From contig JAKJER010000006.1 of assembly GCA_022705325.1 (NCBI GenBank), positions 169,097 through 233,096 on the forward strand: a DNA stretch of 64,000 nt. The letters are read 5' to 3'. Source of the stretch: Planctomycetota bacterium. Lineage in GTDB: Bacteria; Planctomycetota; Phycisphaerae; SM23-33. Both the position numbers and the translations under genes were made by a program. The stretch's first letter is position 1. Every line of letters starts with the position of its first letter. Shown piece after piece: positions 2,241-59,596 of this stretch. Under the pieces are notes generated by a model. It saw only the letters and a list, made by a program, of their open reading frames with translations. It made no database searches and was not told the DNA's origin.

Positions 2241-6011
<3,771 letters not shown>

Positions 6012-6282: not shown

Positions 6283-6304
6283 GCGGGCGGTGCGTCGCCC
6301 GCGA
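6283..6304 (-). terminator. GC-rich hairpin (CGCGGGCG-GTGCGT-CGCCCGCG) in the rplL-rpoB spacer; candidate partial terminator/attenuator
   Basis: Perfect 8-bp inverted repeat 17 nt downstream of the rplL stop on the coding strand, with no strong U-tract. An attenuator at this position is classical in the rplJL-rpoBC operon. Confidence 0.35.
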
Positions 6305-6320
6305 CAGGCACTGGCCCGTC

Positions 6321-6713
6321 TTACTTGATCTCGACGGCGCCGCCGGCCTCTTCCAACTGCTTCTTGGCGTCCTCGGCCTCTTCCTTCGACACGCCCGTCT
6401 TGACCGGCTTGGGCGCGCCGTCGACCAGGTCCTTGGCCTCCTTGAGGCCCAGGTTGGTCAGGGCCCGGACGACCTTGATGACCTGGATCTTCTTGTCGCC
6501 GGCGCCGGTGAGGACGACGTCGAACGAGGTCTTCTCTTCCTCGGCCGGGGCGGCAGCGGCGCCCGGACCGGCCGCCATCATGACGGCGCCGCCGGCGGCG
6601 GGTTCGATCCCGTAGGCTTCCTTCAGGTAATCCTTCAGTTCGACGGCTTCCTTCAGGGTCAGCCCAGCCAGCTTGTCGCCCAGTTCCTTGATTGCAGCAC
6701 TTGCTTCTGCCAT
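6321..6713 (-). CDS. rplL: 50S ribosomal protein L7/L12
   Basis: 130 aa. The N-terminal dimerisation helix, an Ala/Pro/Glu-rich hinge and the C-terminal domain (…[23 protein letters not shown]…) are all present. Confidence 0.96.
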
Positions 6714-6847
6714 GGTTCCAAACCTTCCAAAACGTCACGGGAATCGTCAGCCCGTGTTCCCTGCCGGCCTGATAGGCGAGCACCCCGTTGGCGCTCATTT
6801 AATCCCTGAGGGACCAATCTGCAGCCGGATAAGTTTCTCTCTCTCGT

Positions 6848-7471
6848 TCAGGCCGAAGCCTCGCCCGCGGGGGCGGCTTCCGCGGCCGGGGGAGCTTCCG
6901 CGGCCGGGGCGGCTTCGGCGGCCGGAGCAGCTTCGGCTTCCAGCTTCTCGCCGGCTTCCTCTCGCTTCTCCTGGATGGCCTTGACCAGCGAGGCGATGGC
7001 CCCGCCGGGCCCGATCAGGCAGCCGGCCAGGTTGGCGCCGCTGGACAGCACGCACGAGACCGCCTGCCCGATGGCTTCGGGGCGGGTCGGGTACTTGCTG
7101 AGAGCCTCGATCTCTTCTTCCCGGAAGGGGTTGCCTTCGAGGACCGCGGCCTTGACCACCAGCTTGGGCGTCTCGCGATGGATGTCCAGCAGTTCGCGAA
7201 CGATGGTGACGACGCTGTCGGCCCCGTAGGCCAGGGCGCAAGGCCCGTCCAGCAGGTCGCCGGCGGCATCGAGCTTGATCTCGCGGAAGGCCGAGCGGGC
7301 CAGCGAGTTCTTGACCACCATCAGGCGGATGTCCTTCTGGAGCAGGCGAGAGCGGATCTGGTGGGTGGTGACCGCGTCGACGCCGGTGAATCCGACCACC
7401 GCCAGCGAATCCACGCCGGCCAGGCGATCGGTAATCTCTTTGCGAAGCAGTTCCTTGACTGGTTTGCTCAT
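6848..7471 (-). CDS. rplJ: 50S ribosomal protein L10 with an extra C-terminal EAAPA-type repeat tail
   Basis: 207 aa. It is L10-like throughout and ends in …EAEAAPAAEAAPAAEAPPAAEAAPAGEASA. It sits between rplA and rplL. Confidence 0.92.
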   Translation of the reverse strand: MSKPVKELLRKEITDRLAGVDSLAVVGFTGVDAVTTHQIRSRLLQKDIRLMVVKNSLARSAFREIKLDAAGDLLDGPCALAYGADSVVTIVRELLDIHRETPKLVVKAAVLEGNPFREEEIEALSKYPTRPEAIGQAVSCVLSSGANLAGCLIGPGGAIASLVKAIQEKREEAGEKLEAEAAPAAEAAPAAEAPPAAEAAPAGEASA

Positions 7472-7482
7472 GGTTTCACCTG

Positions 7483-8166
7483 TTACTGCACGTCCATCTG
7501 GACGCCGGGGGTCATCGCACCGGACAACACCGCGTTCTTGATATAGGTTCCCTTGGCCGCGGAGGGCTTGATGTGCTTTATGTGGCTGACGAAGGCGTTG
7601 ATGTTGTCCACCAGCTTCTCGTCGGCAAAGCTCATCTTGCCCACCGGCACGTGGATGTTGCCACCGGCGTCGTTGCGATACTCGATCTTGCCGGCCGAGT
7701 ACTCCCGCACGGCCTGGGCGACGTCGGTGACGACGGTGCCGGCCTTGGGCGAGGGCATCTTGCCCTGGGGTCCGAGGACCCGGCCCAGCCGGGAGACGTT
7801 CTTCATCACCGCGGGGGTGGCAACGGCGACGTCGAAGTCGGTCCAGCCGTCCTGAACCTTCTTGATCAGCTCGTCGTTGCCGGCCTCGATGGCGCCGGCG
7901 GCCTTGGCCTTCTCGATCTCGCTCTCGTCGCAGAAGGCGATGACCTTCTTGCTGGAGCCGATGCCGTGGGGCAGGCTGATCGAGCCGCGGAGGGCTTGGT
8001 CGGCCTGCTTGGGGTCGATGCCGAGGTGCAGGACCAGATTGACGGTCATGTCGAACTTAATGGCCTTGAAGGTCTTGAGGGCCGCGACGGCGTCGCCGAC
8101 GGGGACCTTGCCTTGCGGCACCTTCGGCAGGTCGGCCTTGTATCGCTTGCTTCGTTCCTTACCCAT
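7483..8166 (-). CDS. rplA: 50S ribosomal protein L1
   Basis: 227 aa with typical L1 sequence (…KFDMTVNLVLHLGIDPKQADQALRGSISLPHG…). The conserved rplK-rplA order is kept. Confidence 0.95.
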   Translation of the reverse strand: MGKERSKRYKADLPKVPQGKVPVGDAVAALKTFKAIKFDMTVNLVLHLGIDPKQADQALRGSISLPHGIGSSKKVIAFCDESEIEKAKAAGAIEAGNDELIKKVQDGWTDFDVAVATPAVMKNVSRLGRVLGPQGKMPSPKAGTVVTDVAQAVREYSAGKIEYRNDAGGNIHVPVGKMSFADEKLVDNINAFVSHIKHIKPSAAKGTYIKNAVLSGAMTPGVQMDVQ

Positions 8167-8288
8167 ACGGGTTTCTCCTGTCGTCCCGGGGGACTCCCAC
8201 TGTTGTTGGTGACGGGCCCGTGGTGGGGCCCGGCCCGCAGCCGGCAGTCAGGGCGGACCGTCCGCCCGGCGCCGGCAGATGCGGACGG

Positions 8289-8714
8289 TTATTTTTCGAC
8301 CACCAGCCCCATGGAGCGGGCGGTGCCTTCGATGATCCGGCAGGCGTGGTCCAGGTCGTGGGCGTTGAGATCGGCCTTCTTCTTCTCGGCGATGGCCCGG
8401 ACCTGGTCCATGGTGACCTTGCCGACCTTCTCCTTGTTGGGCGTGCCGCTGCCCTTGGCGATCTGGGCGGCTTCCTTGAGCAGGGCGGACGCGGGCGGGC
8501 TCTTGGTGATGAAGGTGAAGGACTTGTCCTTGTAGACCGTGATCACCACGGGGATCGGGGTGCCGGCGTACTCGCGGGTGCGGTCGTTGAACTGCGAGAC
8601 GAACTGCCCGATGTTGACGTTGTGCTGGCCCAGGGCCGGCCCGATGGGCGGCGCGGGGGTCGCCTGTCCGCCGGCGGCCTGCAGCTTGATCTGTGCGACG
8701 ATTTCTTTTGCCAT
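8289..8714 (-). CDS. rplK: 50S ribosomal protein L11
   Basis: 141 aa beginning [35 protein letters not shown]…, the canonical L11 N-terminal domain with the PPIGPALG motif. Confidence 0.96.
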
Positions 8715-8821
8715 GGGTGTGAACCTTTCCGGATTCCGCTATGTCGCCTGGGTTATCCGCCCGTACGGCCAACGTCCGGGCGGGGCGGCTCACGGCCACC
8801 GGTCTGTAGGGTTTCGCATTC

Positions 8822-9373
8822 TCAGGCCTTTTCGACCTGCCAGTACCCCAGTTCGACGGGTGTGGCGCGCCCGAAGATTGTCACGATGACGCGGATCAGT
8901 CCCCGATCCAGCAGCACCTCGTCCACCGTGCCCTCGAAGTTTTCGAAGGCCCCTTCCTTGATCTTTACGCTGTCGCCCTTCTCGAACTCGACGCTGACGG
9001 GCCCGCCTTCCTCGGCCTTCTCCACCTGCATCAGCATCTTGTCGACGTCCGCCTGCTGCATGGGCGAGGGCTTGCCCGCGGCGCCGATGAAGTCGCCCAC
9101 GCCGGTGGTTTCCTTGATGAGGAACCAGGCCTTGTCGCCGATCGTCCCGTCGCTCTCGAGTTCCATCTCGATGAAGACGTAGCCGGGATACATCTTGCGC
9201 TCGACGAACTTCTTCTCCCCGCGCCCGCGGGGGCTGGGACGACGCTCGGTGGGCACCAGGATGCGACCGATGCGGTCTTCCAGACCCTCGATCTTCACCT
9301 TTCGCTCCAGCGCGCGGCGAACCTCGTCCTCCTTGTTCGACGCCACCCGCAGCACATACCATTGCTTGGCCAT
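8822..9373 (-). CDS. nusG: Transcription termination/antitermination factor NusG
   Basis: 183 aa with an NGN domain (MAKQWYVLRVASNKEDEV…GYVFIEM) and a C-terminal KOW domain (…GDSVKIKEGAFENFEGTV…). It is adjacent to secE. Confidence 0.94.
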   Translation of the reverse strand: MAKQWYVLRVASNKEDEVRRALERKVKIEGLEDRIGRILVPTERRPSPRGRGEKKFVERKMYPGYVFIEMELESDGTIGDKAWFLIKETTGVGDFIGAAGKPSPMQQADVDKMLMQVEKAEEGGPVSVEFEKGDSVKIKEGAFENFEGTVDEVLLDRGLIRVIVTIFGRATPVELGYWQVEKA

Positions 9374-9390
9374 GACCGTCCTTTAGGGCT

Positions 9391-9792
9391 CTAGCCCATC
9401 ACGCCCAGCCACCGGAACAGGACCACGAACAGCAGGTCCACGCCGAAGATGATCACCGCCAGGATGAACGTGGTCACGATCACGACCTTGGTCGAGCCGA
9501 CGACTTCCTTCCGGCTGGACCAGGAGACCTTCTTCATCTCGCCCTCGGTGGCGATCAGGAAGTCCGCCGTCCTGGGCCGATTGACGATCCAGAAGCTGAA
9601 CAGGCCGAAGGCCAGCACCACCAAGGTGGGGATGCCGAACTGGACGTAGGTCTTCATCGCCCCCAGGCCGCCGATGGCTCCCAGTTGGGCGCTCAGAACC
9701 ACCGCGCCGGCCAGCGCCAGTCCGAAAATCGTCACCGCGGTGATGATCCGGGTGTACTTGCCTTGACCGCGTTTGTAGATTTCAATTTTCAC
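9391..9792 (-). CDS. secE: Preprotein translocase subunit SecE (long, 3-TM form)
   Basis: 133 aa with three predicted TM helices. It occupies the conserved position between tRNA-Trp and nusG, and the C-terminal TM carries the SecE-like …KVSWSSRKEVVGSTKVVIVTTFIL…. Confidence 0.85.
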   Translation of the reverse strand: MKIEIYKRGQGKYTRIITAVTIFGLALAGAVVLSAQLGAIGGLGAMKTYVQFGIPTLVVLAFGLFSFWIVNRPRTADFLIATEGEMKKVSWSSRKEVVGSTKVVIVTTFILAVIIFGVDLLFVVLFRWLGVMG

Positions 9793-9857
9793 GTTTCACC
9801 GCACAGCCGCTTGATCCGGCGACAGCCCGCCGACCGGGCCGCCTGTTGCTCGTCCAC

Positions 9858-9930
9858 CACGGCAGGGAGGACTTGAACCCCCAACCTGCGGTTTTGGAGA
9901 CCGCTGCTCTACCAATTGAGCTACTGCCGT
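9858..9930 (-). tRNA. tRNA-Trp (anticodon CCA)
   Basis: Reverse complement folds as a cloverleaf: ACGGCAG-TA-GCTC-AATTGGTA-GAGC-A-GCGGT-CTCCAAA-ACCGC-AGGTT-GGGGG-TTCAAGT-CCTCC-CTGCCGT-G. The anticodon loop is CUCCAAA, the discriminator is G, and CCA is not encoded. Confidence 0.9.
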
Positions 9931-9985
9931 GTGCCGCCCGCGGGAGGGCGGGGTTCCGTCCCGCGGGCGAGTCTGCACGCTGCTG

Positions 9986-10153
9986 TTATTTCCGCTTGAG
10001 CTTATGCTCCGTGTGGTTGCGCGAGCGGGGGCAGTACTTCTTCAGCGTCAGCTTGGGCGTACCGCCGGCGGTGCGGACCTGGATGCGGTAATTCAGGTCG
10101 CCGCACTCGGTGCATTGCAGCCACACGTATTCGCGAGCCTTGGCCTTGGCCAT
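9986..10153 (-). CDS. rpmG: 50S ribosomal protein L33
   Basis: 55-aa ORF (MAKAKAREYVWLQCTECGDLNYRIQVRTAGGTPKLTLKKYCPRSRNHTEHKLKRK) with the C-x2-C…C-x2-C zinc ribbon. It is too small for the ORF track and occupies the classical tuf-rpmG-secE position. Confidence 0.9.
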   Translation of the reverse strand: MAKAKAREYVWLQCTECGDLNYRIQVRTAGGTPKLTLKKYCPRSRNHTEHKLKRK

Positions 10154-10156
10154 CGT

Positions 10157-11362
<1,206 letters not shown>

Positions 11363-11511
11363 CAGTAACGCTCCTCTTGTACGAGTTCTTGAATACTGCG
11401 TTTGTTTTGGGGCTTCCTGTCTATCGCTGACACCGCGTTGCTGCCCATCCTGCCGGGCCGGCCAAGCGTCGGCCTGTCCGCCATCCGGCTCGGCGGCCCC
11501 TGGGCCACCAG

Positions 11512-11583
<72 letters not shown>

Positions 11584-11933
11584 GCAAAGAAAAACTGACC
11601 ACAAAGCCCCTCCCCATCACACCGGCCCGGGGCCCGGCTGACTGAGGGTGCACTGCGACCTTGGCTTTGAGATAGACCGGCTAGTATACGCCCCAAAATG
11701 ATCCTGTCAAAAGAAATTTCAAGCCCGCCTCCAAGATTTTTGCCCGCAGGAAAGGCTGATTCGCCGCGCCGAGACCGCGTGTTGCGGATCGCCGCCCCTC
11801 GGGGTATCCTGTGCCCGCAGGGAAGCCCCTCGCGGCGCAGGGCAGGGCCGGCGTGTGCCCGGCCCCGCCGGACCACGGGCGCTGGGCAGATCATGAGAGT
11901 CAGGACACTGGGAACCCGAAGGACAGGATCGAC

Positions 11934-14900: not shown

Positions 14901-15284
14901 CAGCTCGCCAGGAAGAAGACCGCCTTCCCCAGGGATTACCTGCCCGCGGGCGCCGCCACTGCCGGGGACTTCGCCGCCGCCCTGGACCGTTGCATCCAGA
15001 AGCTCGACGCGCTGGTCAAGCAGGCGGACGCGGGCGCCGCCGACAGGTTCTACACTCACACCCAGCCGCTGATGCTGCGCCAGTACTACGCCTACCTGCG
15101 GGAACTGGCGATGGCGATGGAGGACCGCTCCCGCCTGGCTGCCGCCTGTAAGGAACTGGAGGCCCTGTTGGCGATCCGCAACGAGGCCCAGGCCGGCCGA
15201 TGGGCGAACTGGTATCGCGGAGACAAGAAGGAGAACCTGCCCGCCCTGCTGGAGCGAACGCGGACATTGACCAGCGACCATTGA
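11934..15284 (+). CDS. Secreted two-module glycoside hydrolase: N-terminal clan GH-A TIM-barrel domain (…WEIWNEPD…) plus a C-terminal domain of uncertain family (GH115/DUF4838-like?)
   Basis: Start trimmed to MMTRLKGVATVVWVLALASPARA (signal peptide) with AAGGA upstream. The NEP catalytic acid/base motif is typical of GH5/30/39. The second half (…FRYRGWFINDEDLL…NLVIPASF…) resembles large accessory GH domains. The ORF ends …LTSDH* inside a CATTGA heptamer array. Confidence 0.6.
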   Translation: MMTRLKGVATVVWVLALASPARAGESYPLLGKVRPRHAREIAASPWSVGGETLDRDYAIYANYKGYLGPLGVKKIRLQAGWAKCEKKPGRYDWTWLDEVVDDALAQGVAPWLETSYGNPIYEGGGGAGLGGGLPTGEKALAAWDAWVAALVGRYRDRVLEWEIWNEPDLNKKNTAADYAAFYIRTAEIIRREQPKARLLALAIAGIGNTAYVESFLKPLADQKKLHLVDQITVHGYPENPDSSYPTLAKLLKVVRKYDPKIPLRQGENGAPSTKTVGALSKLKTSETVQAKWDLRRMMGDLGHDMESNVFTLMELRYRGGRMDGWNTKGILKAAPDMTVERPKQAYYAVQNVTAIFDSTLARVADFACKADLDQPLAAYAYKRADGACAATLWLSGRVPADASDKTPANLTLTGVKFTEPLWVDLRTGEVRAIPADRWKAGEGGCSFQGVPVYDSPVVIAEKSLVPLAPAAAARGTGILPVRPTGVPPVGQGRDGPATQGRDAHATLVLTRPVRIAGPKQDDAVRLAMEDLAGDVEAALGRKAEVLPPPEAAKAARADIVVRIDGGLNEPGSYTIEVTKDGVTIRGADRLGAVYGVYRFSREFLGVDPLWFWKGHAAPTDRRDRIVLPAGTIRSQRPAFRYRGWFINDEDLLSEWLAPSGKRSIDYPFYGQVISLEIAERIFEALLRCEGNLVIPASFVDVMNEPEAELVRRAVRRGLYVTQHHIEPLGVSHFGFENFWKRQGRTVRMSYASDPQAVRETWTAFARRWAELAGEQVIWQLGLRGRGDMPVWSSDKSVSADKAGEIISAAIADQWRIVRSVDKRDQPPTTVTLWMEGSQLMARGSLKLPTGVTVVFADEGSSQTLQDDFRQTPRAADHTYGLYYHIAFWSRGPHLVAGTRIGKLADQLGQVIDKGDTHYAVFNVSNIREHVLGAAAGMEILRDGRSWDRKGFIGRWPARQVALPECLLELPGDRLLQDGTAWVLARKLLDQLARKKTAFPRDYLPAGAATAGDFAAALDRCIQKLDALVKQADAGAADRFYTHTQPLMLRQYYAYLRELAMAMEDRSRLAAACKELEALLAIRNEAQAGRWANWYRGDKKENLPALLERTRTLTSDH

Positions 15285-15312
15285 ACATTGACCGTTGATC
15301 ATTGACCATTGA
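15264..15312. repeat. Heptanucleotide tandem array, 7 x (N)CATTGA, straddling the stop codon of the upstream GH gene
   Basis: ACATTGA CCAGCGA CCATTGA ACATTGA CCGTTGA TCATTGA CCATTGA read directly from the sequence; the TGA stop at 15282-15284 is part of the third unit. Confidence 0.8.
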
Positions 15313-20809: not shown

Positions 20810-21754
20810 TCAACCCTGGCGGGACCCTTGCGGGCGGAGGTACTTCACGATCTTGTCCATCATGGCGTCGAAGAACTCGTGGGAGTAGGTCACGCCGTGG
20901 TGGAGCCGAAGCGGGCGGATGTCCTCCGGGAGGTCGCCGCCCTGGGGGAAGGCGAAGTCGGGCATCATCAGGGGGATGATGTTGCTCTTGACGCGGATCG
21001 CCTGGGCGATCTCTTTGCGGACCCAGTCCTCGTCGTCGCGGCAATGGGCGAGCGAGTTGGGCGACAGGATGAGCAGGAAGTTCGGCGCGTAGGCGATTTC
21101 CGCGAGCAAGGCTTCGTCGAAGTGCCCGGTGGACAGGTCGTCCACGTCGAGGAACACGCTGAAGCCGCGCTGTCGCAGTTCCGCGCGGATGAGCCGGGCG
21201 GTCTGGCCGCCCTCGCGGCGTCGATAGCTGATGAACACGTCGCTGCCCTGCGGGGCGGGGGCGGCGGGGCTTGGCGGCGCGGGAGCAGCAGGCGGCCGGG
21301 CCGGCGCCTGCACGGGCGGTGGGGTCGCGGACGGCCTTGAGGGGGCCGACGTCGATGGCGGAAGCTTGCGGAGAATAGCAATCAGCCGCTCGACGTGCTT
21401 GGCCAGGGGCGGCGGGAAGAGGTCCATCCACGGGGCGTTGCCCAGCAGATACTCCAGCGTGCCGCGCGGTTGCACCTTCTCCAGGCGGCACGGGATGACG
21501 ACCTTGCCGCGGGCTGTCGCACACTCGATCTCGCGGATGATCTGCCGCGATTCGTTGGCCTCCTGGCTGAACAGGAAGACCACGACCCGGGCCGACTGAA
21601 TGGCGTCCAGGATGGACGTGGACCACTCCGCGCCCTCGGGGAGGTCCCTGGGGGCGAACCAACACCGCAGGCCGGCAGCCTCCAGTTGCTCACAGACGGC
21701 CTTGCGCTTGTCGGACTGCCGCAGCGGACACGTGATGAAGACGTCGTGCGCCAT
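20810..21754 (-). CDS. Tandem TIR-TIR domain protein: two Toll/interleukin-1-receptor-like domains joined by a Pro/Ala-rich linker
   Basis: Domain 1 is MAHDVFITCP…VVVFLFSQEANESRQIIREIE… and domain 2 is …SDVFISYRRREGG…FLLILSPNSLAHCRDDEDWVRKEI…. Both have the DVFIS/T betaA motif and the S-x-x-S…E (alphaC catalytic Glu) pattern of NAD-cleaving TIR domains. The linker is PPSTSAPSRPSATPPPVQAPARPPAAPAPPSPAAPAP. Confidence 0.7.
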   Translation of the reverse strand: MAHDVFITCPLRQSDKRKAVCEQLEAAGLRCWFAPRDLPEGAEWSTSILDAIQSARVVVFLFSQEANESRQIIREIECATARGKVVIPCRLEKVQPRGTLEYLLGNAPWMDLFPPPLAKHVERLIAILRKLPPSTSAPSRPSATPPPVQAPARPPAAPAPPSPAAPAPQGSDVFISYRRREGGQTARLIRAELRQRGFSVFLDVDDLSTGHFDEALLAEIAYAPNFLLILSPNSLAHCRDDEDWVRKEIAQAIRVKSNIIPLMMPDFAFPQGGDLPEDIRPLRLHHGVTYSHEFFDAMMDKIVKYLRPQGSRQG

Positions 21755-26275: not shown

Positions 26276-28597
26276 ATGAGAAGGCACATCCTTATCGTGC
26301 TCGTGTCTCTGGAACCCCTATTCGCTTCCGCACTTTCCGCCGCCCCGCCGGCGCAGTTTGCAGCCTGGGGCACGACCTGCGGGCCGCTCAAGCCCGTGCC
26401 CGCGGGCTGGAGACTCATCCAACCATCGCCCGCCCCCCCGCCGCCGCCGACCGAGCTCGACCGCAAGCGAGGCTTCCAGATCCTCAGTGACTCCGGATCG
26501 ACCAACGGCGAGCTGCGGCCGATCACCGCGCTTAACCTCTCAGCCGCGGTCGCCGAGTACGAGAGCGCCAGCTTCGTCCTCCACGCACTGCGGCCACTGG
26601 AGGGCGTGACGCTGCGGATCGTCGAACCGCCGGGCCCGCCAGGAGGGCCGGGCGTCGAGAAGACGGACCCGGCGTCGGCTGGCTGGCCGCTCTCGCCTGC
26701 GAACGTCGACATCCGCGTCGCCCGCGCCATACCCTTCCCGCTGGACGCCAAGGCCAAGACGTACCGCAAGGAAGACTGGGTGCTGGAGAAACTTCCGACG
26801 CTGACCCTCGCCGCCGGCGAGCGGGTGCGAGTCTGGCTGACCTTGCGGGCGGACGAGGTGGCGGAGCACCGCGGCAGATTGGAGGTCGCGGCCAACGACG
26901 CCGCGACGAGTCTGGAGGTGATCCTCCGCATCCTGCCGTTTTCCTTGCCCCCGCCGGCTGTCGAGTTCGCGATGTACTACCCGCGCCCGCCGGCCGACGA
27001 CGCCCAACTCGCCCGCGAGTTGATCGACATGCGCGAGCACGGCATGAACTCGATCCTGCCCGCGATTGAGGCGGTGATCAAGACACGCGACCGGAAGTTC
27101 AGCGCCGATGACATGCGGGCGACCCGCGAGCATGCCGAGCGGATGCTGCGGGCCGTGCGCGAGCACCTGGGGCCGCCGCGCTTTCCGCCCCTGGCGGCGG
27201 CCGGGCACCAGATCGCCTACTACTGGAACCAGCGGACCAACTGGTTCGAGTATTGGCCGCACACGCCGCAGATCGAGGCCGACCTGTTGGCTGCCTGCCG
27301 GCTGCTGGACGAGTTGGCCCGCGACCGCGGGGCCGCACGCACGCGGATCTACCTGGCCGACGAAGCCGCCGCTCACAACCTGCTCGACCAGGCTGCGCGG
27401 AGCTACGCCCTGGTCAAGCAGCGCCTGCCCGAGATGGAGACGTGGACCACGATCGGGGGCGGGCTGGCCATGGGCGTCGACGAGTTGGGGCCGCTGGACA
27501 AGTGTGTGGATTTCTTCGCGACCAACCGCTTCACGCCGCAGGTCGCCCGGCGGTTGGTAGGCCGTGGCAAGGCGTTCGGGGTGTATAACGGGGCGGGCCA
27601 CGCCCCCGAGCAGGCCCGCTTCTTCTTCGGCTTTTACGGGTGGAAGACGGCGGCAGCCCAGGTCTCGCAGTGGTGCTACCACTTCGGCGACTCGCCCTTC
27701 GCCGGCAACGGCCTGCGCAAGGAGGATGAGGGCTTCGTCTACCGCGCCGCCGACGGCCCTGTGCCAACGTTGATGTGGGAGGCTGTCCGCGAGGGCGTCG
27801 ACGACTTCCGCTACATGCAACTCCTCGCCCAATTCGTAGTCGCCGCCACGCTGCACGGCGGCGCCGCACCCCAGGCCGTCCATGACGCCCAGGCATGGTT
27901 GCGGGCGACGCTCGCAACGATCGACTGGAACGTCCAGCCACTTCGGTCCGAGGACCGCTCCGCCCCGCCGACCATGGCGCGCATGAACCAGTGGCGCCGC
28001 GAGGCGGTCGACCACATCCTCAAGCTCTCGCCGCAGGGCAAGCCTGCGCCCCTGCCGGAACTCGTCCGCTCGCCCTTCGACCACCCCTGGGCGTCGGCCG
28101 CCCAGCCGGTCAAGCTCGGCGAGGAACTCCTGCCCCAGGTGGGCTTCGAGACCGGCCTGGAACCTTGGCGCGTCGAGGCGTGGAACGGCAAGAGCAGTCA
28201 CCGCCTGGATGACCGCCAGCCGCACGCGGGCAAGCAGTCGGTCCGCATCGACATCCCTGCCGGCCAGCCCAGCACGGCCGTCACCGTCCTGGTCTTGCCG
28301 GGCTACGGTCCCAAGCCCTTCACCCGCACGCTGGCCGGCGGGAGCGGATACGAGCTTTCCGCCTGGGTCAATGCGCCCGCGAGACTCCCGCCGCAGCTCC
28401 GCGTTGCCCTCCCGGACGGCGCCACCGCAAAGACCCAGTCCGGTCAGGACGAGCCCGGCCCGGACGGTTGGCAGCGTCTGTGGCTGCGCGTCTGGCCCAA
28501 GGAGGACGCCAAGCCCAAGTACCTCGCCCTTTGGGTCCAGGGGCCGGGAACGGTGTGGGCGGACGACGTCAGCCTCCGGACGATCATTGACCATTGA
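26276..28597 (+). CDS. Secreted hypothetical glycoside-hydrolase-like protein (DUF4091/GH123-like?) with a C-terminal CBM4/9-like domain
   Basis: Signal peptide MRRHILIVLVSLEPLFASALSA. The central region (…IYLADEAAAH…) looks like a TIM barrel. The C-terminus (…WNGKSSHRLDD…YELSAWVNAP…VWADDVSL) resembles a carbohydrate-binding module. It ends …IIDH* inside a CATTGA heptamer array. Confidence 0.4.
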   Translation: MRRHILIVLVSLEPLFASALSAAPPAQFAAWGTTCGPLKPVPAGWRLIQPSPAPPPPPTELDRKRGFQILSDSGSTNGELRPITALNLSAAVAEYESASFVLHALRPLEGVTLRIVEPPGPPGGPGVEKTDPASAGWPLSPANVDIRVARAIPFPLDAKAKTYRKEDWVLEKLPTLTLAAGERVRVWLTLRADEVAEHRGRLEVAANDAATSLEVILRILPFSLPPPAVEFAMYYPRPPADDAQLARELIDMREHGMNSILPAIEAVIKTRDRKFSADDMRATREHAERMLRAVREHLGPPRFPPLAAAGHQIAYYWNQRTNWFEYWPHTPQIEADLLAACRLLDELARDRGAARTRIYLADEAAAHNLLDQAARSYALVKQRLPEMETWTTIGGGLAMGVDELGPLDKCVDFFATNRFTPQVARRLVGRGKAFGVYNGAGHAPEQARFFFGFYGWKTAAAQVSQWCYHFGDSPFAGNGLRKEDEGFVYRAADGPVPTLMWEAVREGVDDFRYMQLLAQFVVAATLHGGAAPQAVHDAQAWLRATLATIDWNVQPLRSEDRSAPPTMARMNQWRREAVDHILKLSPQGKPAPLPELVRSPFDHPWASAAQPVKLGEELLPQVGFETGLEPWRVEAWNGKSSHRLDDRQPHAGKQSVRIDIPAGQPSTAVTVLVLPGYGPKPFTRTLAGGSGYELSAWVNAPARLPPQLRVALPDGATAKTQSGQDEPGPDGWQRLWLRVWPKEDAKPKYLALWVQGPGTVWADDVSLRTIIDH

Positions 28598-28618
28598 CTA
28601 TTGGCCATTGAACGTTCC
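28584..28618. repeat. Heptanucleotide array (TCATTGA CCATTGA CTATTGG CCATTGA ACGTTCC) overlapping the stop codon of the upstream gene
   Basis: Direct reading; the TGA stop (28595-28597) is embedded in the second unit. Confidence 0.7.
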
Positions 28619-29894: not shown

Positions 29895-31538
29895 ATGACG
29901 CCTGTTCGCTTCTCAGGGCTGGGGTATTTTCGTTTCGTGCTCGTGTGCGCCTGCCTGCCGGCGTTGGCGGCCGCCCTGCGGCCGGCCCGGGCGGCGGACT
30001 GGCCCCAGTGGGGCGGCGGCAATGCGCGAAACGCCTGCTCGGGCGAGAAGAACCTGCCCGAGTCGTTCGAGCCGGGCGACAAGGACCCCAAGAGCGGCGA
30101 GATCCGCGCCGACACCACCCGCAACGTCAAGTGGTCCGCCCGCCTGGGGGGCGGGTGCTACGGCAACACCACCGTCGCCAACGGGCGCGTCTTCGCCGGC
30201 ACCGACGACCAGACGCTTCGCGAGGACGAGCGCTTCGGCCGGCCCAACACCGCCGGCATGGTCAAGTGCTTCGACGAGAAGACGGGCAAGCTGCTGTGGC
30301 AGTTGCCCATCGCCCCGATCAAGACCCCCAAGGAATGGCACTACGGCTTCCAGAAGCTCGGGGTCTGCTCCTCCCCCACCGTCGACGGCGACCGCGTCTA
30401 CATCGTCTCCCACACCAACGACGTGCTCTGTCTGGACGTCCGCGGCCAGGCCAACGGCAACGACGGGCCCTTCACCGACGAGGCCAAGCTCATGGTCAAG
30501 GCCGACCAGAAGCCGGTTGAGCTCCAGCCCACCGACGGCGACGTGATCTGGCGCTTCAGCGTCAACGAGGAGCTGAAGGTCATCCCCCACGACGTGGCGA
30601 GCTGCTCGGTGGTCGTCCATGGCGACTTCGTCTACCTCTCTACGTCCAACGGGGTCAACCACGCCCACGACAAGCCTCTGTCGCCCGACGCGCCGGCGTT
30701 CATCGCGCTGAACAAGCACACGGGCAAGCTGGCGGCCGTCGAGGACGAGGGGATCAGCAAGCGGATGTTCCACACGCAGTGGTCCTCGCCCTGCCTGGCG
30801 ACGGTGGGCGGGCGGACGCTGGTGGTGGTCGGCGCGACCGACGGCTTCTGCTACGCCTTCGAGCCGCTGGACAAGATGCCCGACGCGCCCGCCAAGCTCA
30901 AGAAGGTCTGGCAGTACGACTGCAACCCCCCCGAGTACCGCCTCCGCGACGGCAAGCGCATCAACTACCTCGACGGCGACAAGCGCAAGAAGACCAGCCC
31001 CAACAAGAACGACGGCACCTACCTGGGCCCCAGCGAGGTCATCGCCACGCCCGCCTTCTCCAACGGGCGCGTCTACGTGGCCATCGGGCAGGACCCCCTC
31101 CACGGCCGGGGAAGGGGCCTGCTCCACTGCATCGACGCCTCCAAGACCGGCGACATCACCAAGACCGGCTGCGTGTGGACCTACGACGGCCTGGACCGCA
31201 CCATCGCCAACGCCGTCGTCGCCGGCGGACTGGTCTACATCCCCGACATCGCCGGAAGACTCCACTGCGTCGACGCCGACACGGGCAAACCGCACTGGGT
31301 GCACGAGATGAAGGCCGAGACCTGGGGCAGCCCCATGGTCGCAGACGGCAAGGTCTACCAGGGCACGCAGAAGGCGCTGCATGTGCTCGCCGCGGGCAAG
31401 GAGGCCAAGGAACTGGCCCGCATCAATCTCGGCTCGCCCATCTACAGCACCCCCATCGCGGCCAACGGCACGCTCTATTTCGCTTCGCAGAAGTACCTGT
31501 GGGCGGTGGCGAAGCAGCCGGTAGCCTCCAGCCGGTAG
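29895..31538 (+). CDS. Secreted PQQ-like beta-propeller repeat protein
   Basis: Signal peptide, then DWPQWGGGNARN… and repeated …G.VY.G..DG.L.A.D..TGK..W… blades. It ends PVASSR* within a GTAGCCT heptamer array. Confidence 0.6.
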   Translation: MTPVRFSGLGYFRFVLVCACLPALAAALRPARAADWPQWGGGNARNACSGEKNLPESFEPGDKDPKSGEIRADTTRNVKWSARLGGGCYGNTTVANGRVFAGTDDQTLREDERFGRPNTAGMVKCFDEKTGKLLWQLPIAPIKTPKEWHYGFQKLGVCSSPTVDGDRVYIVSHTNDVLCLDVRGQANGNDGPFTDEAKLMVKADQKPVELQPTDGDVIWRFSVNEELKVIPHDVASCSVVVHGDFVYLSTSNGVNHAHDKPLSPDAPAFIALNKHTGKLAAVEDEGISKRMFHTQWSSPCLATVGGRTLVVVGATDGFCYAFEPLDKMPDAPAKLKKVWQYDCNPPEYRLRDGKRINYLDGDKRKKTSPNKNDGTYLGPSEVIATPAFSNGRVYVAIGQDPLHGRGRGLLHCIDASKTGDITKTGCVWTYDGLDRTIANAVVAGGLVYIPDIAGRLHCVDADTGKPHWVHEMKAETWGSPMVADGKVYQGTQKALHVLAAGKEAKELARINLGSPIYSTPIAANGTLYFASQKYLWAVAKQPVASSR

Positions 31539-31717
31539 CCTGTGGTCTGTAGCCTGCCGGCAGGCATAAGGTCGGTGGGGTCGCAGGAAGGGCGCAACCC
31601 TTGCCAGCCGCTCAATCCCTTTCTCCGCCGCCATGAAGGCGGTGGGATCAAACAACGAGGCGATTCTCGGACAACCCTTCGGCTACAGGCTACTGACTAC
31701 AGGCTACTGGCTACCGG
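31521..31717. repeat. About 200-bp element with inverted heptamer-array arms (5 x GTAGCCT-type at 31521-31555; 5 x GGCTACN at 31681-31717) around a core carrying the CCTGCCGGCAGG palindrome (31553-31564); MITE-like/REP-like
   Basis: The left arm CCGGTAGCCTCCAGCCGGTAGCCTGTGGTCTGTAGCC is approximately the reverse complement of the right arm GGCTACAGGCTACTGACTACAGGCTACTGGCTACCGG. Both arms are 7-nt periodic. Confidence 0.6.
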
Positions 31718-44295: not shown

Positions 44296-44316
44296 AGTCT
44301 CTCCTTGAAGCAATTC

Positions 44317-44418
44317 TCGATTGTCGATTTGCGATTGTCGATTGACCCACCCGTCTTGGCAGGCCCTGCTCAAATCGACAATCGAAAACCTGCCGGCAGG
44401 CAGGTCGACAATCGTCAA
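44317..44418. repeat. REP-like element: heptamer array 4 x TCGATTG-type, inverted copies (AATCGAC AATCGAA … TCGACAA TCGTCAA) and the 23-nt core AACCTGCCGGCAGGCAGGTCGAC (44387-44409)
   Basis: CGATTGTCGATTTG (44316-44329) is the exact reverse complement of CAAATCGACAATCG (44371-44384). The core is identical to 58063-58085. It sits between the URO-D-family stop and the GH106-like start. Confidence 0.75.
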
Positions 44419-45581
44419 TACCATCCGTACTCGTACGCCGCGTCGTACATCGCGACGATGTTCTCAGGCGGCACGCCGGCCTGGATGTTGTGGACGTTGT
44501 TGAACACGTACCCGCCGCCGGGCTTGAACAGCTCGATGTTGCGCCGGACGTGCTCGCGGACCTGGTCCGGCGTGGCCCTCGGCAGGACGCGCTGCGCGTC
44601 GATCGCCCCGCCCCAGAACGTCAGGCGCTCGCCGAACTCCCGCTTGAGCCGCCCCGGGTCCATGTCGGCGGCGCTGATCTGCACCGGGTTGAGGATGTCG
44701 ACGCCGTTGTCGACCAGGTCGCCGATGTACTCGGTGCAGTTGCCGCACGTGTGGTACCAGATCTTCGCCTTCGTCCGCGAGCGGATGTACTGCACGAGTC
44801 GTTTGTGGCGCGGCTTCACGAGCTGACGGTAGAGCGCCGGGCGGAACAGGGGCCCCTGCTGCCCGGCCAGGTCGTCGCCGATCATGATCACGTCCACCAC
44901 GTCGCCGACCTCGTCCAGGAACACCCGGAACCAGTCCATCCAGAACTTGAGCGTCTGGTCCAGCACCGCCTGGCAGAACTCCGGCTCGGTCATCAGGTCC
45001 ACGTACCACTGTTCCAGGCCGCGCATGTACCAGCAGACCTCGTACACCACGCCGCAGATGCCGCTGACCACGGCGTAGGGCGTGTGGTTCTTCAGTTCCA
45101 GGGCCCGCTCGCGCAGGCCCACGAACCGCCCCGGGTCGTCGCCCCTGGGGAACGGGTAGGCCTTCACGTCCTCGATGGTCGCGTTGGCCAGCGGGTGGTG
45201 CGTGATGTCCATGTACAGCCCGTCCTCGGCCGGCATGGACCAGCGGACGCCGAACTCGTCGACCAGGTCGAACCACCGCCTCCCATCGTGCTCGCCCTCG
45301 ACGATGCCGCCCTTCCAGTCGCCCGCCGCCCCGGCCGCGATGTACCGCGTGTCCACGCGGAATCGCTGGAGGAGTTCCTCGCTGGGCTTGGCGAGTTGCT
45401 GGACGGCGTCCATGATCTCGACCGGGCCGTTCATCCCCAGGTGCCGGATCAGCTCGCGGTAGGCGTCGCGATGGATGCCTGTCTGGTTGCCGCCCAGGTC
45501 GATGGGCACGCGGTCCGGCTGCTTGTGGTCCAGGGCGGTCAGGACGCGCTGGCGGGGTGTCATGGTCTCGGTGCGGCTCAT
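44415..45581 (-). CDS. Uroporphyrinogen-decarboxylase (URO-D)/MtaA-CmuA-family protein
   Basis: 388 aa; …TPRQRVLTALDHKQPDRVPIDLGG… plus a TIM-barrel-length body typical of PF01208 members. GGAG RBS. Its start overlaps the rhaT stop by 4 nt. Confidence 0.6.
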   Translation of the reverse strand: MSRTETMTPRQRVLTALDHKQPDRVPIDLGGNQTGIHRDAYRELIRHLGMNGPVEIMDAVQQLAKPSEELLQRFRVDTRYIAAGAAGDWKGGIVEGEHDGRRWFDLVDEFGVRWSMPAEDGLYMDITHHPLANATIEDVKAYPFPRGDDPGRFVGLRERALELKNHTPYAVVSGICGVVYEVCWYMRGLEQWYVDLMTEPEFCQAVLDQTLKFWMDWFRVFLDEVGDVVDVIMIGDDLAGQQGPLFRPALYRQLVKPRHKRLVQYIRSRTKAKIWYHTCGNCTEYIGDLVDNGVDILNPVQISAADMDPGRLKREFGERLTFWGGAIDAQRVLPRATPDQVREHVRRNIELFKPGGGYVFNNVHNIQAGVPPENIVAMYDAAYEYGWY

Positions 45582-56030: not shown

Positions 56031-56105
56031 TAGTGGTTCGTGCACAGTGGATGGCCAAGCGCGTCCTGTTCTCTTCCCTATCCACTATCCACTGTCCACT
56101 ATTCC
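56029..56105. repeat. Inverted heptamer arrays (AATAGTGG…CACAGTGG vs TATCCAC TATCCAC TGTCCAC TATT) between the permease gene and nrdJ
   Basis: AATAGTGGTTCGTGCACAGTGGATGG is approximately the reverse complement of CTATCCACTATCCACTGTCCACTATT. Units are 7-nt periodic and contain CACTAT / ATAGTG, which resemble NrdR half-sites. Confidence 0.55.
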
Positions 56106-56140: not shown

Positions 56141-58036
56141 ATGCAGACATTCGAGCCCATTTTGTCCCCCAATGCCCTGCGGGCGCTGGAGGCGCGGTAT
56201 TTGCGGAAGGACATCTCCGGGCGGCTCCTCGAGACGCCGGGCGGAATGTTCCAGCGCGTGGCCCGGGCGGTGGCCGCTGCCGAGCCGGCCTACGGGGCCT
56301 CGCCGGCTGAAGTCGAGCAAACCGAGCGCGACTTCTACGAGATGATGGCCCGCACGGAGTTCCTGCCCAACAGCCCCACGCTGATGAACGCGGGACGCCG
56401 GCTCGGAATGCTCAGCGCGTGCTTCGTGCTGCCTATCGACGACTCGATCGACGCCATCTTCGAGTCGGTCAAGCACACCGCGCTGATCCAGAAGGCCGGC
56501 GGGGGCACGGGCTTCTCCTTCGACCGCCTCCGCCCCACGGGCGATTACGTGGCCTCCTCGGGCGGCACGACCAGCGGGCCCATCAGCTTCTGGCGGGTCT
56601 TTTGCGAGGCCACCCGCGCCATCCAGCAGGGGGCGTTCCGGCGCGGGGCCAACATGGGCATGATGTCCGTCGACCGCCCCGACATTCTCAAATTCATCTC
56701 GGCCAAGGAAAGGCCGGGCGAGTTCGAGAACTTCAACATCTCCGTCAAGGTCACCGACGCGTTCATGTGCGATCTGCGAAGCGACGGCGACCGTCCGCAC
56801 GTGGTCACCAACCCTCACACGGGCGAGCGGTATACCCTCCCGGCCGGGCTGGACGTGGCCACCTACTCGATCCACGACCTGGCGCCCCACGACGGCCGCC
56901 CCGCCCCGCCCTACGCCGTCACCAGCCGCCAGGTCTGGGACCGCATCGTCCGGGGCGCGTGGGCCACCGGCGAGCCCGGGCTGTGCTTCATCGACCGCGT
57001 CAACGCCGACAACCCCACCCCCCAAGTCGGGCGGATCGAGGCCACCAACCCCTGCGGCGAGCAGCCCCTGCTGGATTACGAGGCCTGCAACCTCGGCTCG
57101 GTGGACGTCTCCAAGTTCGTCCGCGACGGACGGCTCGACGAGGCCGCCTTCTCCCGCACCGTCCGTCTGGGCGTCCGGTTCCTCGACGACGTCATCGACG
57201 TCAACAACTACGTCATCCCAGCCGTGACCGACATCTGCCGCCGCAACCGCAAGATCGGGCTGGGCGTCATGGGTCTGGCCGACGCCTTGATGGAACTGGA
57301 GATCCCCTACGACAGCGAGGAAGGCCTGGCCTTCGGGCGGCGAGTGGCGGAGTTGTTCACGCGCGAGGCCTTCGCCGCCGACGAGGAACTGGCCCGCCGG
57401 CGCGGGTGCTTTGCCAACTGGCCCGGCAGCGTGTGGGATGTCCGCCATCACCGCCCCATGCGCAACGCAGCCGTCACCACCGTGGCCCCCACCGGCACGC
57501 TGAGCCTCATCGCCGGCTGCTCCGGCGGGATCGAGCCCGTCTACGCCCTGGCCTTCTACCGCCACGTGCTGGGCGGGCAGGAGATGCTCGACCTCTGCGG
57601 GCCCTTCCTGCGCTACGCCCGACGGCACGGCATCTGGAATGACGATCTGGCCCGCCGCCTGGCCGGGCGGACAAGCCTGGGCTGCATCGAGGGCCTCGAT
57701 GCCCGCACCCGCGAGATCTTCGTCACCGCCCACGACGTGGCCCCCGCCTGGCACGTTCGAATGCAGGCCGTCTTCCAGGAGCACGTCGACGGGGCCATCT
57801 CCAAGACCATCAACCTCCCCGCCGGCGCCACCCTCAAGGACGTGGAAGACGTCTACCAGCTCGCCTTCGACCTCCGCTGCAAAGGCGTGACCGTCTACCG
57901 CGACGGCTGCCGGACGGGCCAGCCCATGACCACCGAGAAGCTCGACGCCCTCTGCCCACGCTGCCAGGCGCTGCTCGAAGAGATCGACGGCGCCTGCTCG
58001 CGCTGCCCCTCGTGCGGGGCGCCCCTGTGTTCCTGA
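56141..58036 (+). CDS. nrdJ: Adenosylcobalamin-dependent (class II) ribonucleotide reductase with a C-terminal zinc ribbon
   Basis: Active-site …ATNPCGEQPL…, …SNCNLGS-like CNLGSVD…, and a C-terminal CPRCQ…CSRCPSCG. 631 aa. Confidence 0.85.
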   Translation: MQTFEPILSPNALRALEARYLRKDISGRLLETPGGMFQRVARAVAAAEPAYGASPAEVEQTERDFYEMMARTEFLPNSPTLMNAGRRLGMLSACFVLPIDDSIDAIFESVKHTALIQKAGGGTGFSFDRLRPTGDYVASSGGTTSGPISFWRVFCEATRAIQQGAFRRGANMGMMSVDRPDILKFISAKERPGEFENFNISVKVTDAFMCDLRSDGDRPHVVTNPHTGERYTLPAGLDVATYSIHDLAPHDGRPAPPYAVTSRQVWDRIVRGAWATGEPGLCFIDRVNADNPTPQVGRIEATNPCGEQPLLDYEACNLGSVDVSKFVRDGRLDEAAFSRTVRLGVRFLDDVIDVNNYVIPAVTDICRRNRKIGLGVMGLADALMELEIPYDSEEGLAFGRRVAELFTREAFAADEELARRRGCFANWPGSVWDVRHHRPMRNAAVTTVAPTGTLSLIAGCSGGIEPVYALAFYRHVLGGQEMLDLCGPFLRYARRHGIWNDDLARRLAGRTSLGCIEGLDARTREIFVTAHDVAPAWHVRMQAVFQEHVDGAISKTINLPAGATLKDVEDVYQLAFDLRCKGVTVYRDGCRTGQPMTTEKLDALCPRCQALLEEIDGACSRCPSCGAPLCS

Positions 58037-58085
58037 TTGCGGATTGCGAATTGCGGACTGCGAACCTGCCGGCAGGCAGGTCGAC
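58035..58085. repeat. Second copy of the REP-like element: 4 x GATTGCG heptamers plus the identical 23-nt core AACCTGCCGGCAGGCAGGTCGAC (58063-58085)
   Basis: GATTGCG GATTGCG AATTGCG GACTGCG starts at the nrdJ stop (TGA 58034-58036). The core is 23/23 identical to 44387-44409. Confidence 0.75.
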
Positions 58086-58144
58086 TATCCCGCGATTGAT
58101 CTTCCTGCCAGGTGAGACTATCCTCTTGGGCCAGGAGAACGCCC

Positions 58145-59596
58145 ATGACAAGATCACTTCTTCTCACCGCCTGCGTGCTGTGTCTGCTGGTTCACTCCGC
58201 CCCCGCCGCCGAGCTGCACGTGGGAGCAATCGAGGTGGACATCACCCCGCCCCTGCCGGTCGCGCTGGCTGGGCAGTTCCATCTCCGCGTGGCCCAGAAG
58301 GCTGAGACGCCCATCAAGGCCGGCATCCTCGTGCTGGAATCGCGAGAGGGCGACAAGGGCCTCGACCACGCCGTCATGATCTCCTGCGACGTGGTCGGCG
58401 TCCCGCCGGATGTGCTGGAACTGGTCCGCCAGGAAACGCACAAGGTCGTCCCGGACCTGGACGTGAGCAAGTTGTTCATCTCGGCCACCCACACGCACAC
58501 CGCCCCGGTGCTGCGGCGCAACGTGTACGTGATTCCGAAGGGCGTGACGCAGGCGGACGAGTACGGCGCGATCCTGGCCCAGCGCCTCGCCCAGGGCGTG
58601 GCCGCGGCATGGAAGGCCCGCAAGGTCGGCAGCGTCGGCTGGGGACTGGGCCATGCCGTGGTGGCCTACAACCGCCGGGCGTCCTACGCCAGCGGCAAGG
58701 CCCAGATGTACGGCAAGACCGACCGAGCGGACTTCCGCCATCTTGAAGGCTACGAGGACCATGACGTGAACACGCTGCTGGCGTGGGACGCCCAAGGCAA
58801 GCTGTTGGCCGCCGCGGTGAACGTGTCGTGCCCGGCCCAGGAAGTCGAGGGACGCACGTCGCTCAACGCCGACTACTGGCACCCGGCCCGGCAACTGCTG
58901 CGCAAACGATTCGGCGAGGAGTTGTGCGTCCTGGGATGGATCGGGGCAGCCGGCGACCAGTCGCCCCATCTGATGTACCGCAAGGCCTCCGACGAGCGGA
59001 TGATGCGCCTGCGCGGACTGACGCGGCTGGAGGAGATCGCCCGGCGGGTCGATCGCGCGGTCGAGGAGGCGTACGAGGCCGCCGGCCAGGACAGCCACAG
59101 CAACGTGGCGTTCGCACACCGCGTCCAGACGCTCCGCCTGCCGATGCGGCTGGTGCTCGAATCCGAATACGCCGAGGCCAAGGCCGCTGTCGCCGAGGCG
59201 GCTTCGCAGATCGAGAAGGACCCCAAGGCCGCCGACCGCCACCACCGCAAGATGGAGTGGTACCAGAAGACGGTCGACCGCTTCGAGGCCCAAAAGAGCG
59301 AGCCCCATCCGACGCTGGAGATCGAGGTGCACGTGCTTCGCATCGGCGATGTCGCGATCTGCACGAACCCCTTTGAGTTGTTCACCGACTACGGCATCCG
59401 GATCAAGGCCCGCAGCAAGGCGGTGCAGACGTTCGTGGTGCAGTTGACCGGCGGATTGAGCGGCTACCTGCCCACCGAGCGGGCGGTGGCCGGCGGGCAT
59501 TACAGCGCCGTGGTGCACTCCAGCCAGGTCGGGCCCGAGGGCGGGCAGGTGCTCGTCGACAAGACGGTGGAGACGATCAACTCCATGTGGCCGTGA
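58145..59596 (+). CDS. Secreted hydrolase, neutral/alkaline-ceramidase-like (tentative)
   Basis: Signal peptide MTRSLLLTACVLCLLVHSAPAAE. The N-terminal region (…ISATHTHTAP…) resembles neutral ceramidase N-terminal domains. The family assignment is weak. Confidence 0.4.
   Translation: MTRSLLLTACVLCLLVHSAPAAELHVGAIEVDITPPLPVALAGQFHLRVAQKAETPIKAGILVLESREGDKGLDHAVMISCDVVGVPPDVLELVRQETHKVVPDLDVSKLFISATHTHTAPVLRRNVYVIPKGVTQADEYGAILAQRLAQGVAAAWKARKVGSVGWGLGHAVVAYNRRASYASGKAQMYGKTDRADFRHLEGYEDHDVNTLLAWDAQGKLLAAAVNVSCPAQEVEGRTSLNADYWHPARQLLRKRFGEELCVLGWIGAAGDQSPHLMYRKASDERMMRLRGLTRLEEIARRVDRAVEEAYEAAGQDSHSNVAFAHRVQTLRLPMRLVLESEYAEAKAAVAEAASQIEKDPKAADRHHRKMEWYQKTVDRFEAQKSEPHPTLEIEVHVLRIGDVAICTNPFELFTDYGIRIKARSKAVQTFVVQLTGGLSGYLPTERAVAGGHYSAVVHSSQVGPEGGQVLVDKTVETINSMWP

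Follow-up and report, generated by a model that had tools for sequence, protein, structure and literature searches.

Why does the same 23-nt block, letter for letter, occupy two spacers of one planctomycete genome, and how did it come to lie directly behind nrdJ? The DNA concerned, 64,000 nucleotides of the Planctomycetota bacterium assembly GCA_022705325.1 (contig JAKJER010000006.1, positions 169,097 to 233,096; Phycisphaerae), is referred to here, at its full length, as 'the window'. Between nrdJ, the gene for an adenosylcobalamin-dependent ribonucleotide reductase (RNR), and a neutral/alkaline ceramidase-like gene, four tandem heptanucleotides begin at the nrdJ stop codon and run straight into the block, AACCTGCCGGCAGGCAGGTCGAC (58035-58062, then 58063-58085), which recurs once in the window, at 44387-44409 of the same (+) strand. 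A first-pass annotation, made from the letters alone, had pointed this out and had taken heptamers and block together for a composite unit resembling the repetitive extragenic palindromes (REPs). The observation is confirmed and the REP-like reading is partly right. A better description, which we consider probable, is that two independent layers meet at this locus: a slippage-prone heptamer array and, within it, an insertional palindrome of very small size, whose family is widespread and apparently undescribed.

The palindrome proper, or 'core', is CCTGCCGGCAGGCAGG. It is the 16-nt form of a family built as (CCTG)1-2 CCGG (CAGG)1-2, whose members measure 12, 16 or 20 nt and whose full form, CCTGCCTGCCGGCAGGCAGG, is a 20-nt perfect palindrome. 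The rest of the block is target context, AA before and TCGAC after, that the two sites share. Further copies were sought and found. The window holds a third, overlooked earlier, which is the minimal 12-nt form CCTGCCGGCAGG (31553-31564), giving two 16-mers and one 12-mer of the family, or three copies per 64 kb; others occur in genomes of the GTDB collection and in viral contigs. The 23-mer has no match in 100 dinucleotide shuffles. The exact 12-mer occurs three times in the window, where base composition predicts about 0.03 occurrences (0.89 are expected by shuffles if up to one mismatch is allowed). Ten independent assemblies of the same strain agree on every base of the nrdJ-ceramidase spacer, which is therefore not an assembly artefact.

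Relatives show that the core can be present or absent while its surroundings stay. A relative at 93% identity (L203) carries the identical 23-mer at the nrdJ locus. In a 79-89% relative from a single ENA sample, ERZ27315072 (L205 at 79%, L208 at 89%), the core is absent at both orthologous spacers, and yet stop codon and gene order, heptamer arrays with their inverted arms, and the downstream flank are all kept. The nrdJ spacer of L205 has a different array, with the unit TTTGCGA. Copy 1, at 44389-44404, is present in L207 and L211 (97-98% relatives) and absent in L208. Among metagenome relatives at 64% identity or less, synteny is gone. Homologues of nrdJ carry the name adenosylcobalamin-dependent RNR of Phycisphaerae, and one protein encoded in the window is identical to a protein of 'Planctomycetes bacterium ADurb.Bin126'.

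The boundaries of the insertion can be read from the arrays themselves. We deleted the core and scored period-7/14 identity across the junction, with a loose threshold of at least 12/21 and a strict one of at least 14. Exact excision brought 16 of 131 copies to the loose threshold and 11 to the strict; shifting the cut by 1-3 nt left 0-5 copies at the loose threshold and none at the strict. The result was replicated on a viral set whose flanks were unconstrained (8 of 40 copies at offset 0, against 0-1 elsewhere). Copy 1 scores 18/21 after excision. No target-site duplication was seen, and since exact excision restores the register, none appears to be made. Both 16-nt copies in the window lie at AA^TCGAC (the caret marks the insertion point), and at two other loci, L118 and L230, the core interrupts GATTGCG arrays between GA and TT (GA^TT).

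Insertions are also found outside arrays. One locus (L069) has a clean core insertion relative to an intact tRNA-Arg paralogue. On a phage contig (IMGVR_UViG_3300033148_008720; L236:2239-2330), a tRNA-Met(CAT) holds the 20-mer in its variable loop, forming an extra arm like that of a class-II tRNA; ARAGORN calls the gene at 92 nt with the 20-mer and at the standard 72 nt once exactly 20 nt are removed. In protein genes, the core accounts for 7 residues in a Trbp111-like protein that its solved Trbp111 homologues lack (L064) and for a 5-residue insert in a DNA ligase (L068). Where the flanks form inverted repeats, the core sits in the loop of the host hairpin. Three candidates were left out of the evidence, an 'anticodon-loop insertion' (L015), L213 and L243, all of them fragments resembling tRNAs for which ARAGORN makes no call, with or without the insert.

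What, then, of the heptamers? The array at 58035-58062 is an ordinary slippage-prone intergenic simple-sequence repeat, separate from the core. It has four tandem units in the window and eight in L203, with the core unchanged, and its copy number is constant across the ten same-strain assemblies. The idea that array and core form one composite unit did not survive. Excision restores the register, the relative represented by L205 and L208 keeps arrays without a core, and an apparent 5-fold excess of arrays within 100 nt of cores disappeared on normalisation per kb of spacer (0.29 arrays per kb in core-bearing spacers and 0.34 in others). Because arrays are no denser near the core, the composite unit was given up for insertion into arrays, which serve as landing sites. 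CGATTG heptamers had also been claimed to flank both copies. That holds for copy 1, whose neighbours are CGATTGT and AATCGAC units, and for the right flank of copy 2, but the array to the left of copy 2 (GATTGCG/AATTGCG) has no literal CGATTG. Beyond the block comes TATCCCGCGATTGATCTTCCTGCCAGG, with the CGATTG unit (58093-58098) and the degenerate half-palindrome, CCTGCC-AGG (58104-58112), that had been described there. The surrounding TCTTCCTGCCAGGTGAG is orthologous to CCTGCGTGCCAGGCAGG of L205, and to judge from the alignment is best read as an older, decayed copy of the core.

Arrays of this kind are common in the window. At uniform stringency it contains six strict period-7 arrays, five of them mostly intergenic and one straddling a stop codon, and no arrays of period 8-12. 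The units differ from array to array (CATTGAC, CCCTxGT, GGCTACA, ATTGTCG, CTATCCA, GATTGCG and TCGTTGT). Several start at, or overlap, a stop codon, as does the array behind nrdJ, where the upstream open reading frame (ORF; 55847/56141..58036) ends in a TGA at 58034-58036 that overlaps the first heptamer. In the arrays at 15265-15312, 28585-28611, 58034-58062 and 44405-44417, the TGA within the repeat is the stop codon of the upstream gene; as 7 is coprime to 3, three units of such an array are enough to close every reading frame. The arms of copy 1 are themselves arrays (44313-44344 and 44373-44418; fold z -4.7). In L205 (1700-1800) and L208 (3880-3985), a stop codon is followed by about five CGATTTN heptamers, an unrelated centre of 24-26 nt and about five inverted AATCGAN heptamers, an arrangement comparable to 44296-44414 of the window. 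This looks like a family of 'heptamer-armed hairpins' of about 100 nt, older than the core.

The family extends far beyond this genome. The 18-mer ACCTGCCGGCAGGCAGGT occurs at no fewer than 120 loci in GTDB species-representative genomes ('the GTDB loci' below; gene calls in retrieved loci are simple longest-ORF calls). The hosts among the matches listed are mostly Bacteroidota, Patescibacteria and Planctomycetota, with Ignavibacteriota, Omnitrophota, Nitrospirota and others, and they include the cultured Olivibacter oleidegradans, Sinomicrobium oceani, Muricauda sp. and Gelatiniphilus marinus. The GTDB loci and the window contain 55 further variant copies, up to 3-4 per 8-kb locus, and the 14-mers that recur in at least five GTDB loci are family k-mers only. 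In IMG/VR, the 20-mer CCTGCCTGCCGGCAGGCAGG is present at 35 loci, two composition-matched control palindromes at 0 and 0, and the A...T-flanked 18-mer at only 2. One phage contig of 29.5 kb (IMGVR_UViG_3300037242_000417; L232, L239 and L240), which encodes a terminase large subunit and an SU10-type adaptor, has six copies of the 20-mer. Some of these lie inside a longer repeated unit that reads ...cccgtag, the 20-mer, then gggcggcacaatctagcccagggcgg... In Candidatus Thiosymbion, a gammaproteobacterial symbiont (L023, L024 and L110), the 18-mer falls within a repeat of about 100 nt that also holds short repeats of the CGCAAAT type.

Several searches around the element came back empty, or with chance matches. 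In the window and 18 loci, every Rfam match at gathering score was a tRNA, and around the element nothing credible appeared at E up to 10. Searching open-access full text by the sequence and its sub-strings gave unrelated vertebrate primers only. Direct extension of the stem from the 18-mer is at chance level, extended stems being found only where the core sits in the loop of a host hairpin, and no replication-strand signal that could be used emerged from GC skew. Two apparent patterns, a 'CCTA subfamily' and an 'A^T target', were discarded as artefacts of ascertainment, since the 18-mer query forces A...T flanks; the flank-unconstrained set shows only a purine^pyrimidine tendency. Some matches within ORFs are native coding sequence.

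What sequence comparison shows is where the core is present and where absent, exactly where the insertion begins and ends, how widely the family is distributed, that it prefers spacers directly behind genes and that it occurs in structured targets prone to be single-stranded; how the pattern arose is a matter of interpretation. In the explanation we favour, the first layer would be the heptanucleotide array starting at the nrdJ stop codon, one of many in the spacers of this Phycisphaerae genome, with a copy number that may shift by slippage. Into an AATCGAC-type heptamer at the tip of a pre-existing inverted-heptamer hairpin, CCTGCCGGCAGGCAGG would then have been inserted without target-site duplication. 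Propagation could be in trans, by a putative enzyme acting on a folded single strand (HUH/Y1-type on single-stranded DNA), or via an RNA intermediate of the sort proposed for the small dispersed repeats (SDRs) of cyanobacteria. We incline to a folded single strand, given the copies found in the loops of hairpins and of tRNAs; alternatively, the self-complementary 20-mer could act as a blunt duplex. More broadly, and only tentatively, CCTGCCTGCCGGCAGGCAGG and its 12- and 16-nt derivatives may represent an undescribed family of ultra-small mobile DNA, found across phyla and in phages and entering heptamer arrays, hairpin loops and tRNA loops without target duplication.

At the nrdJ locus, the likely consequence of the core concerns RNA. 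Copy 2, with its flanking A and T, forms a hairpin whose stem has 7 bp and whose loop has 4 nt (-13.3 kcal/mol for RNA, -8.1 kcal/mol for DNA). The heptamers extend this stem, AATTGCGG (58049-58056) pairing with CCGCGATT (58090-58097) and the core forming the apex; the extended RNA fold has -25.6 kcal/mol (z -4.4; 0 of 200 shuffles as stable), the DNA fold -13.1 kcal/mol, and the extended stem-loop recurs in L203. The core would thereby add a stem-loop to the nrdJ 3' end, or intercistronic RNA, of about -13 kcal/mol alone and -26 kcal/mol with the heptamer-derived stem. Like REPs, this could act as a barrier to 3'-exonucleases or as a partial terminator, in our view as a side effect and not as the element's reason to exist.

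Several points weigh against this account. Neither an enzyme nor a mechanism has been found: gene calls and Pfam reveal no transposase, and no REP-associated tyrosine transposase (RAYT), in the 64-kb window, Pfam finds no transposase on the multi-copy phage contigs, and in an all-against-all clustering of ORFs no protein family linked to the core recurs in more than seven of the GTDB loci. The register test bears on a minority of copies, the 10-20% that lie in arrays, and because arrays evolve fast their alignments are not base-exact. Presence and absence in relatives, here three lineages only, cannot by themselves separate gain from loss. The 18-mer query fixes the A...T flanks, which biases the counts and flank preferences of the GTDB set. 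Finally, all three copies in the window lie 10-28 nt past a stop codon, a position that would also suit an element selected as a terminator or stabiliser.

That last point leads to the most serious rival, which we nevertheless judge unlikely: that the core is an RNA element selected by its hosts, an intrinsic terminator or 3'-end stabiliser for nrdJ and other upstream genes, recurring because its stem works well. The stems are indeed stable. Copy 1 lies 10 nt downstream of the TGA of a minus-strand gene of the URO-D family (44415-45581), has TTTT behind it on the strand that is transcribed, and a terminator scan reports it as a hairpin with a U-tract. Among the GTDB matches listed, about 74% of copies are intergenic, and tandem and convergent spacers (45 and 20) outnumber divergent ones (13). 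Copy 2 has no U-tract, however, and receives no call from the same scan; copies 1 and 2 point in opposite directions relative to transcription, and in the GTDB loci listed loop orientation is biased only 29:16. A relative without the core keeps the gene order, and convergent evolution of terminators would hardly be expected to yield the exact 16-20-mer across phyla, in tRNA genes and coding sequences as well, while palindromes of matched composition are absent. Far less probable is a role in DNA as an operator, with the 12-bp CCTGCCGGCAGG the putative site of a dimeric regulator of downstream secreted hydrolase genes. Perfect palindromes do stand 60-200 nt upstream of the starts of GH106-like, ceramidase-like and glycogen-debranching-type genes. 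But in unrelated phyla the same element is also met between convergent genes, within tRNA genes, in coding regions and in phages, the repeat number of its arms varies, and the sites are missing in the 79-89% relative, which has the same genes.

A classical REP, or REPIN, mobilised by a RAYT seems doubtful to us, though less so than an operator, and the earlier comparison with REPs was sound as far as it went. The core is a repeated, extragenic, hairpin-forming palindrome without target duplications; some genomes have several copies per 8-kb locus, and REPs are known to enter coding sequences. It lacks, on the other hand, the tetranucleotide tag of REPs: GTAG accompanies 4 of 115 copies and CGTC 3 of 115, the same as at control positions, and copies 1 and 2 have neither. 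Copy 3, 14 nt after the TAG of the gene at 29895-31538, is directly preceded by GTAG, a single case. The window has no RAYT and the loci no recurrent neighbour gene, the copies are single perfect palindromes and not doublets, and the sequence is common to many phyla where REPs are lineage-specific. Chance similarity or an assembly artefact, lastly, is effectively refuted. The genome is GC-rich (68%), in which GC-rich palindromes are commoner, and a few GTDB matches are due to chance or native coding sequence, such as NLPAGRY in L063, a chance match which we take to be a native motif of the Y_Y_Y domain of two-component sensors. Set against this are the shuffles and the ten assemblies, the cultured isolates that carry the palindrome, the zero counts for the control palindromes and the fact that 93 of the GTDB loci (at least 120) are listed in genomes below 50% GC, for which about two chance matches were calculated over the whole collection.

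Features of the nrdJ-ceramidase locus and related features elsewhere in the window
Feature	Coordinates	Strand	Basis
nrdJ, adenosylcobalamin-dependent ribonucleotide reductase	56141..58036	+	Gene call and Pfam PF00317/PF02867
Heptamer array CTATCCA x3.6, upstream of nrdJ	56078..56102	+	Array scan
Heptanucleotide tandem array, 4 units (GATTGCG GATTGCG AATTGCG GACTGCG)	58035..58062	+	TRF: period 7, 4.0 copies
23-nt block AACCTGCCGGCAGGCAGGTCGAC, core plus shared target context AA...TCGAC	58063..58085	+	Identical to 44387-44409
Core copy 2, CCTGCCGGCAGGCAGG = (CCTG)1 CCGG (CAGG)2, 16-nt form	58065..58080	+	Between AA and TCGAC of AATCGAC-type heptamer
Extended stem-loop, AATTGCGG (58049-58056) with CCGCGATT (58090-58097), core at apex	58049..58097	+	RNA/DNA fold
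Core-like remnant, probably decayed, TCTTCCTGCCAGGTGAG	58100..58116	+	Orthologous to CCTGCGTGCCAGGCAGG of L205, three-way alignment
Shine-Dalgarno-like AGGAGA and ATG of downstream gene	58133..58147	+	Read from sequence; gene call
Neutral/alkaline ceramidase-like gene	58145..59596	+	PF04734 in homologues
Heptamer array TCGTTGT x4, directly after ceramidase-like stop codon	59597..59625	+	Also in L205
Core copy 1, at AA^TCGAC, inside inverted heptamer-array hairpin	44389..44404	+	23-mer match
Core copy 3, minimal 12-nt form CCTGCCGGCAGG	31553..31564	+	14-nt palindrome with flanking G and C

The neighbourhood of the element offers some further observations. The C-terminus of nrdJ (57940-58033) is a Cys-rich, zinc-ribbon-like tail, CPRC...CSRCPSCG, kept in L203 and L205 up to the stop codon that abuts the array. 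The array before the gene, some 40 nt ahead of the nrdJ start, reads cTATCCACTATCCACTGTCCACTATTCC; its TATCCAC units are similar to the core of the DnaA box, TTATCCACA. DnaA is known to control nrd genes in other bacteria. The likeness here could be coincidence. Elsewhere in the window, a conserved cluster (2241-11653) comprises EF-Tu, probable secE/nusG, four ribosomal proteins (probably L11, L1, L10 and L7/L12) and a probable rpoB, names inferred from the size and order of the ORFs. Its tRNAs at 9858-9930 and 11512-11583 are confirmed by tool, and its short spacers have no heptamer arrays. The product of the minus-strand gene at 20810-21754 has two TIR_2 domains, shows a weak ThsB-like match and may be related to defence.

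If the palindrome moves, it is no larger than the smallest mobile elements reported, and it is not bound to one lineage as REPs and SDRs are. Such a family would imply a machinery for insertion in trans, or a route through RNA, which phyla have either conserved or exchanged, and an old question would become testable: how repeats that encode no protein and measure a few tens of nucleotides manage to spread. In practice, the element also gives rise to spurious 'LPAGRQ' peptides, makes tRNA genes longer, puts extra residues into proteins and leaves stable hairpins behind genes; it contributes, as do the heptamer arrays, to differences in spacer length between strains.

Each layer of the locus has counterparts among known repeats. 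The array resembles the long simple-sequence repeats (LSSRs) of Mrazek 2007, the cyanobacterial short tandemly repeated repetitive sequences (STRRs), the Xanthomonas GGGAATC and the Beggiatoaceae TAACTGA repeats in being a tandem, intergenic 7-mer near the 3' end of the upstream ORF, with a length that varies between relatives (PMC4679880, PMC4692102). Bacterial intergenic heptanucleotide repeats, often close to the 3' end of the upstream ORF, have been attributed to polymerase slippage (PMC4679880, PMC4692102). The present arrays differ in that one genome has many different units, that the arrays are often inverted and so form long hairpins, and that they serve as landing sites for a palindrome.

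For the core, the comparison must be with small mobile or dispersed elements. It does not behave as a miniature inverted-repeat transposable element (MITE), since it makes no target duplication and its 16-20 nt are far below MITE size. With REPs and REPINs, which are mobilised by RAYTs (TnpA-REP), it shares extragenic palindromic hairpins, the lack of target duplication, a position downstream of genes and the potential to stabilise mRNA 3' ends; it differs in having no GTAG/CGTC tag, no RAYT that we have seen, no doublet arrangement and no restriction to a lineage. The Rickettsia palindromic elements and the GC clusters of yeast mitochondria are small, GC-rich palindromes of 30-150 nt, each confined to one lineage or organelle. 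Like the core, they invade spacers and sometimes enter protein or RNA genes in frame, whereas the core has 16-20 nt and crosses phyla.

The closest known kind are the cyanobacterial SDRs. Elhai et al. are said to have reported, in 2008 (Genome Res 18:1484), that these measure 21-27 nt, form hairpins, often lie inside tandem heptamers and possibly spread by an RNA-mediated route. An insertion of SDR5 in HIP1 is mentioned as well, as cited in later literature. The core resembles them in several respects: it is a hairpin-forming repeat of a few tens of nucleotides at most, dispersed, often a discrete insert in tandem heptamers, precisely present or absent at orthologous and paralogous sites, and with no encoded protein known. 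What sets it apart, by description, from SDR1-8 is a perfect palindrome of CCTG/CAGG tetranucleotides, different in sequence and smaller (12, 16 or 20 nt against 21-27 nt). Its hosts differ, too: the SDRs are limited to one cyanobacterial subgroup, with heterocystous hosts for SDR1-8, and the core has been met in phages and, among bacteria, in Planctomycetota, Bacteroidota, Patescibacteria and other phyla.

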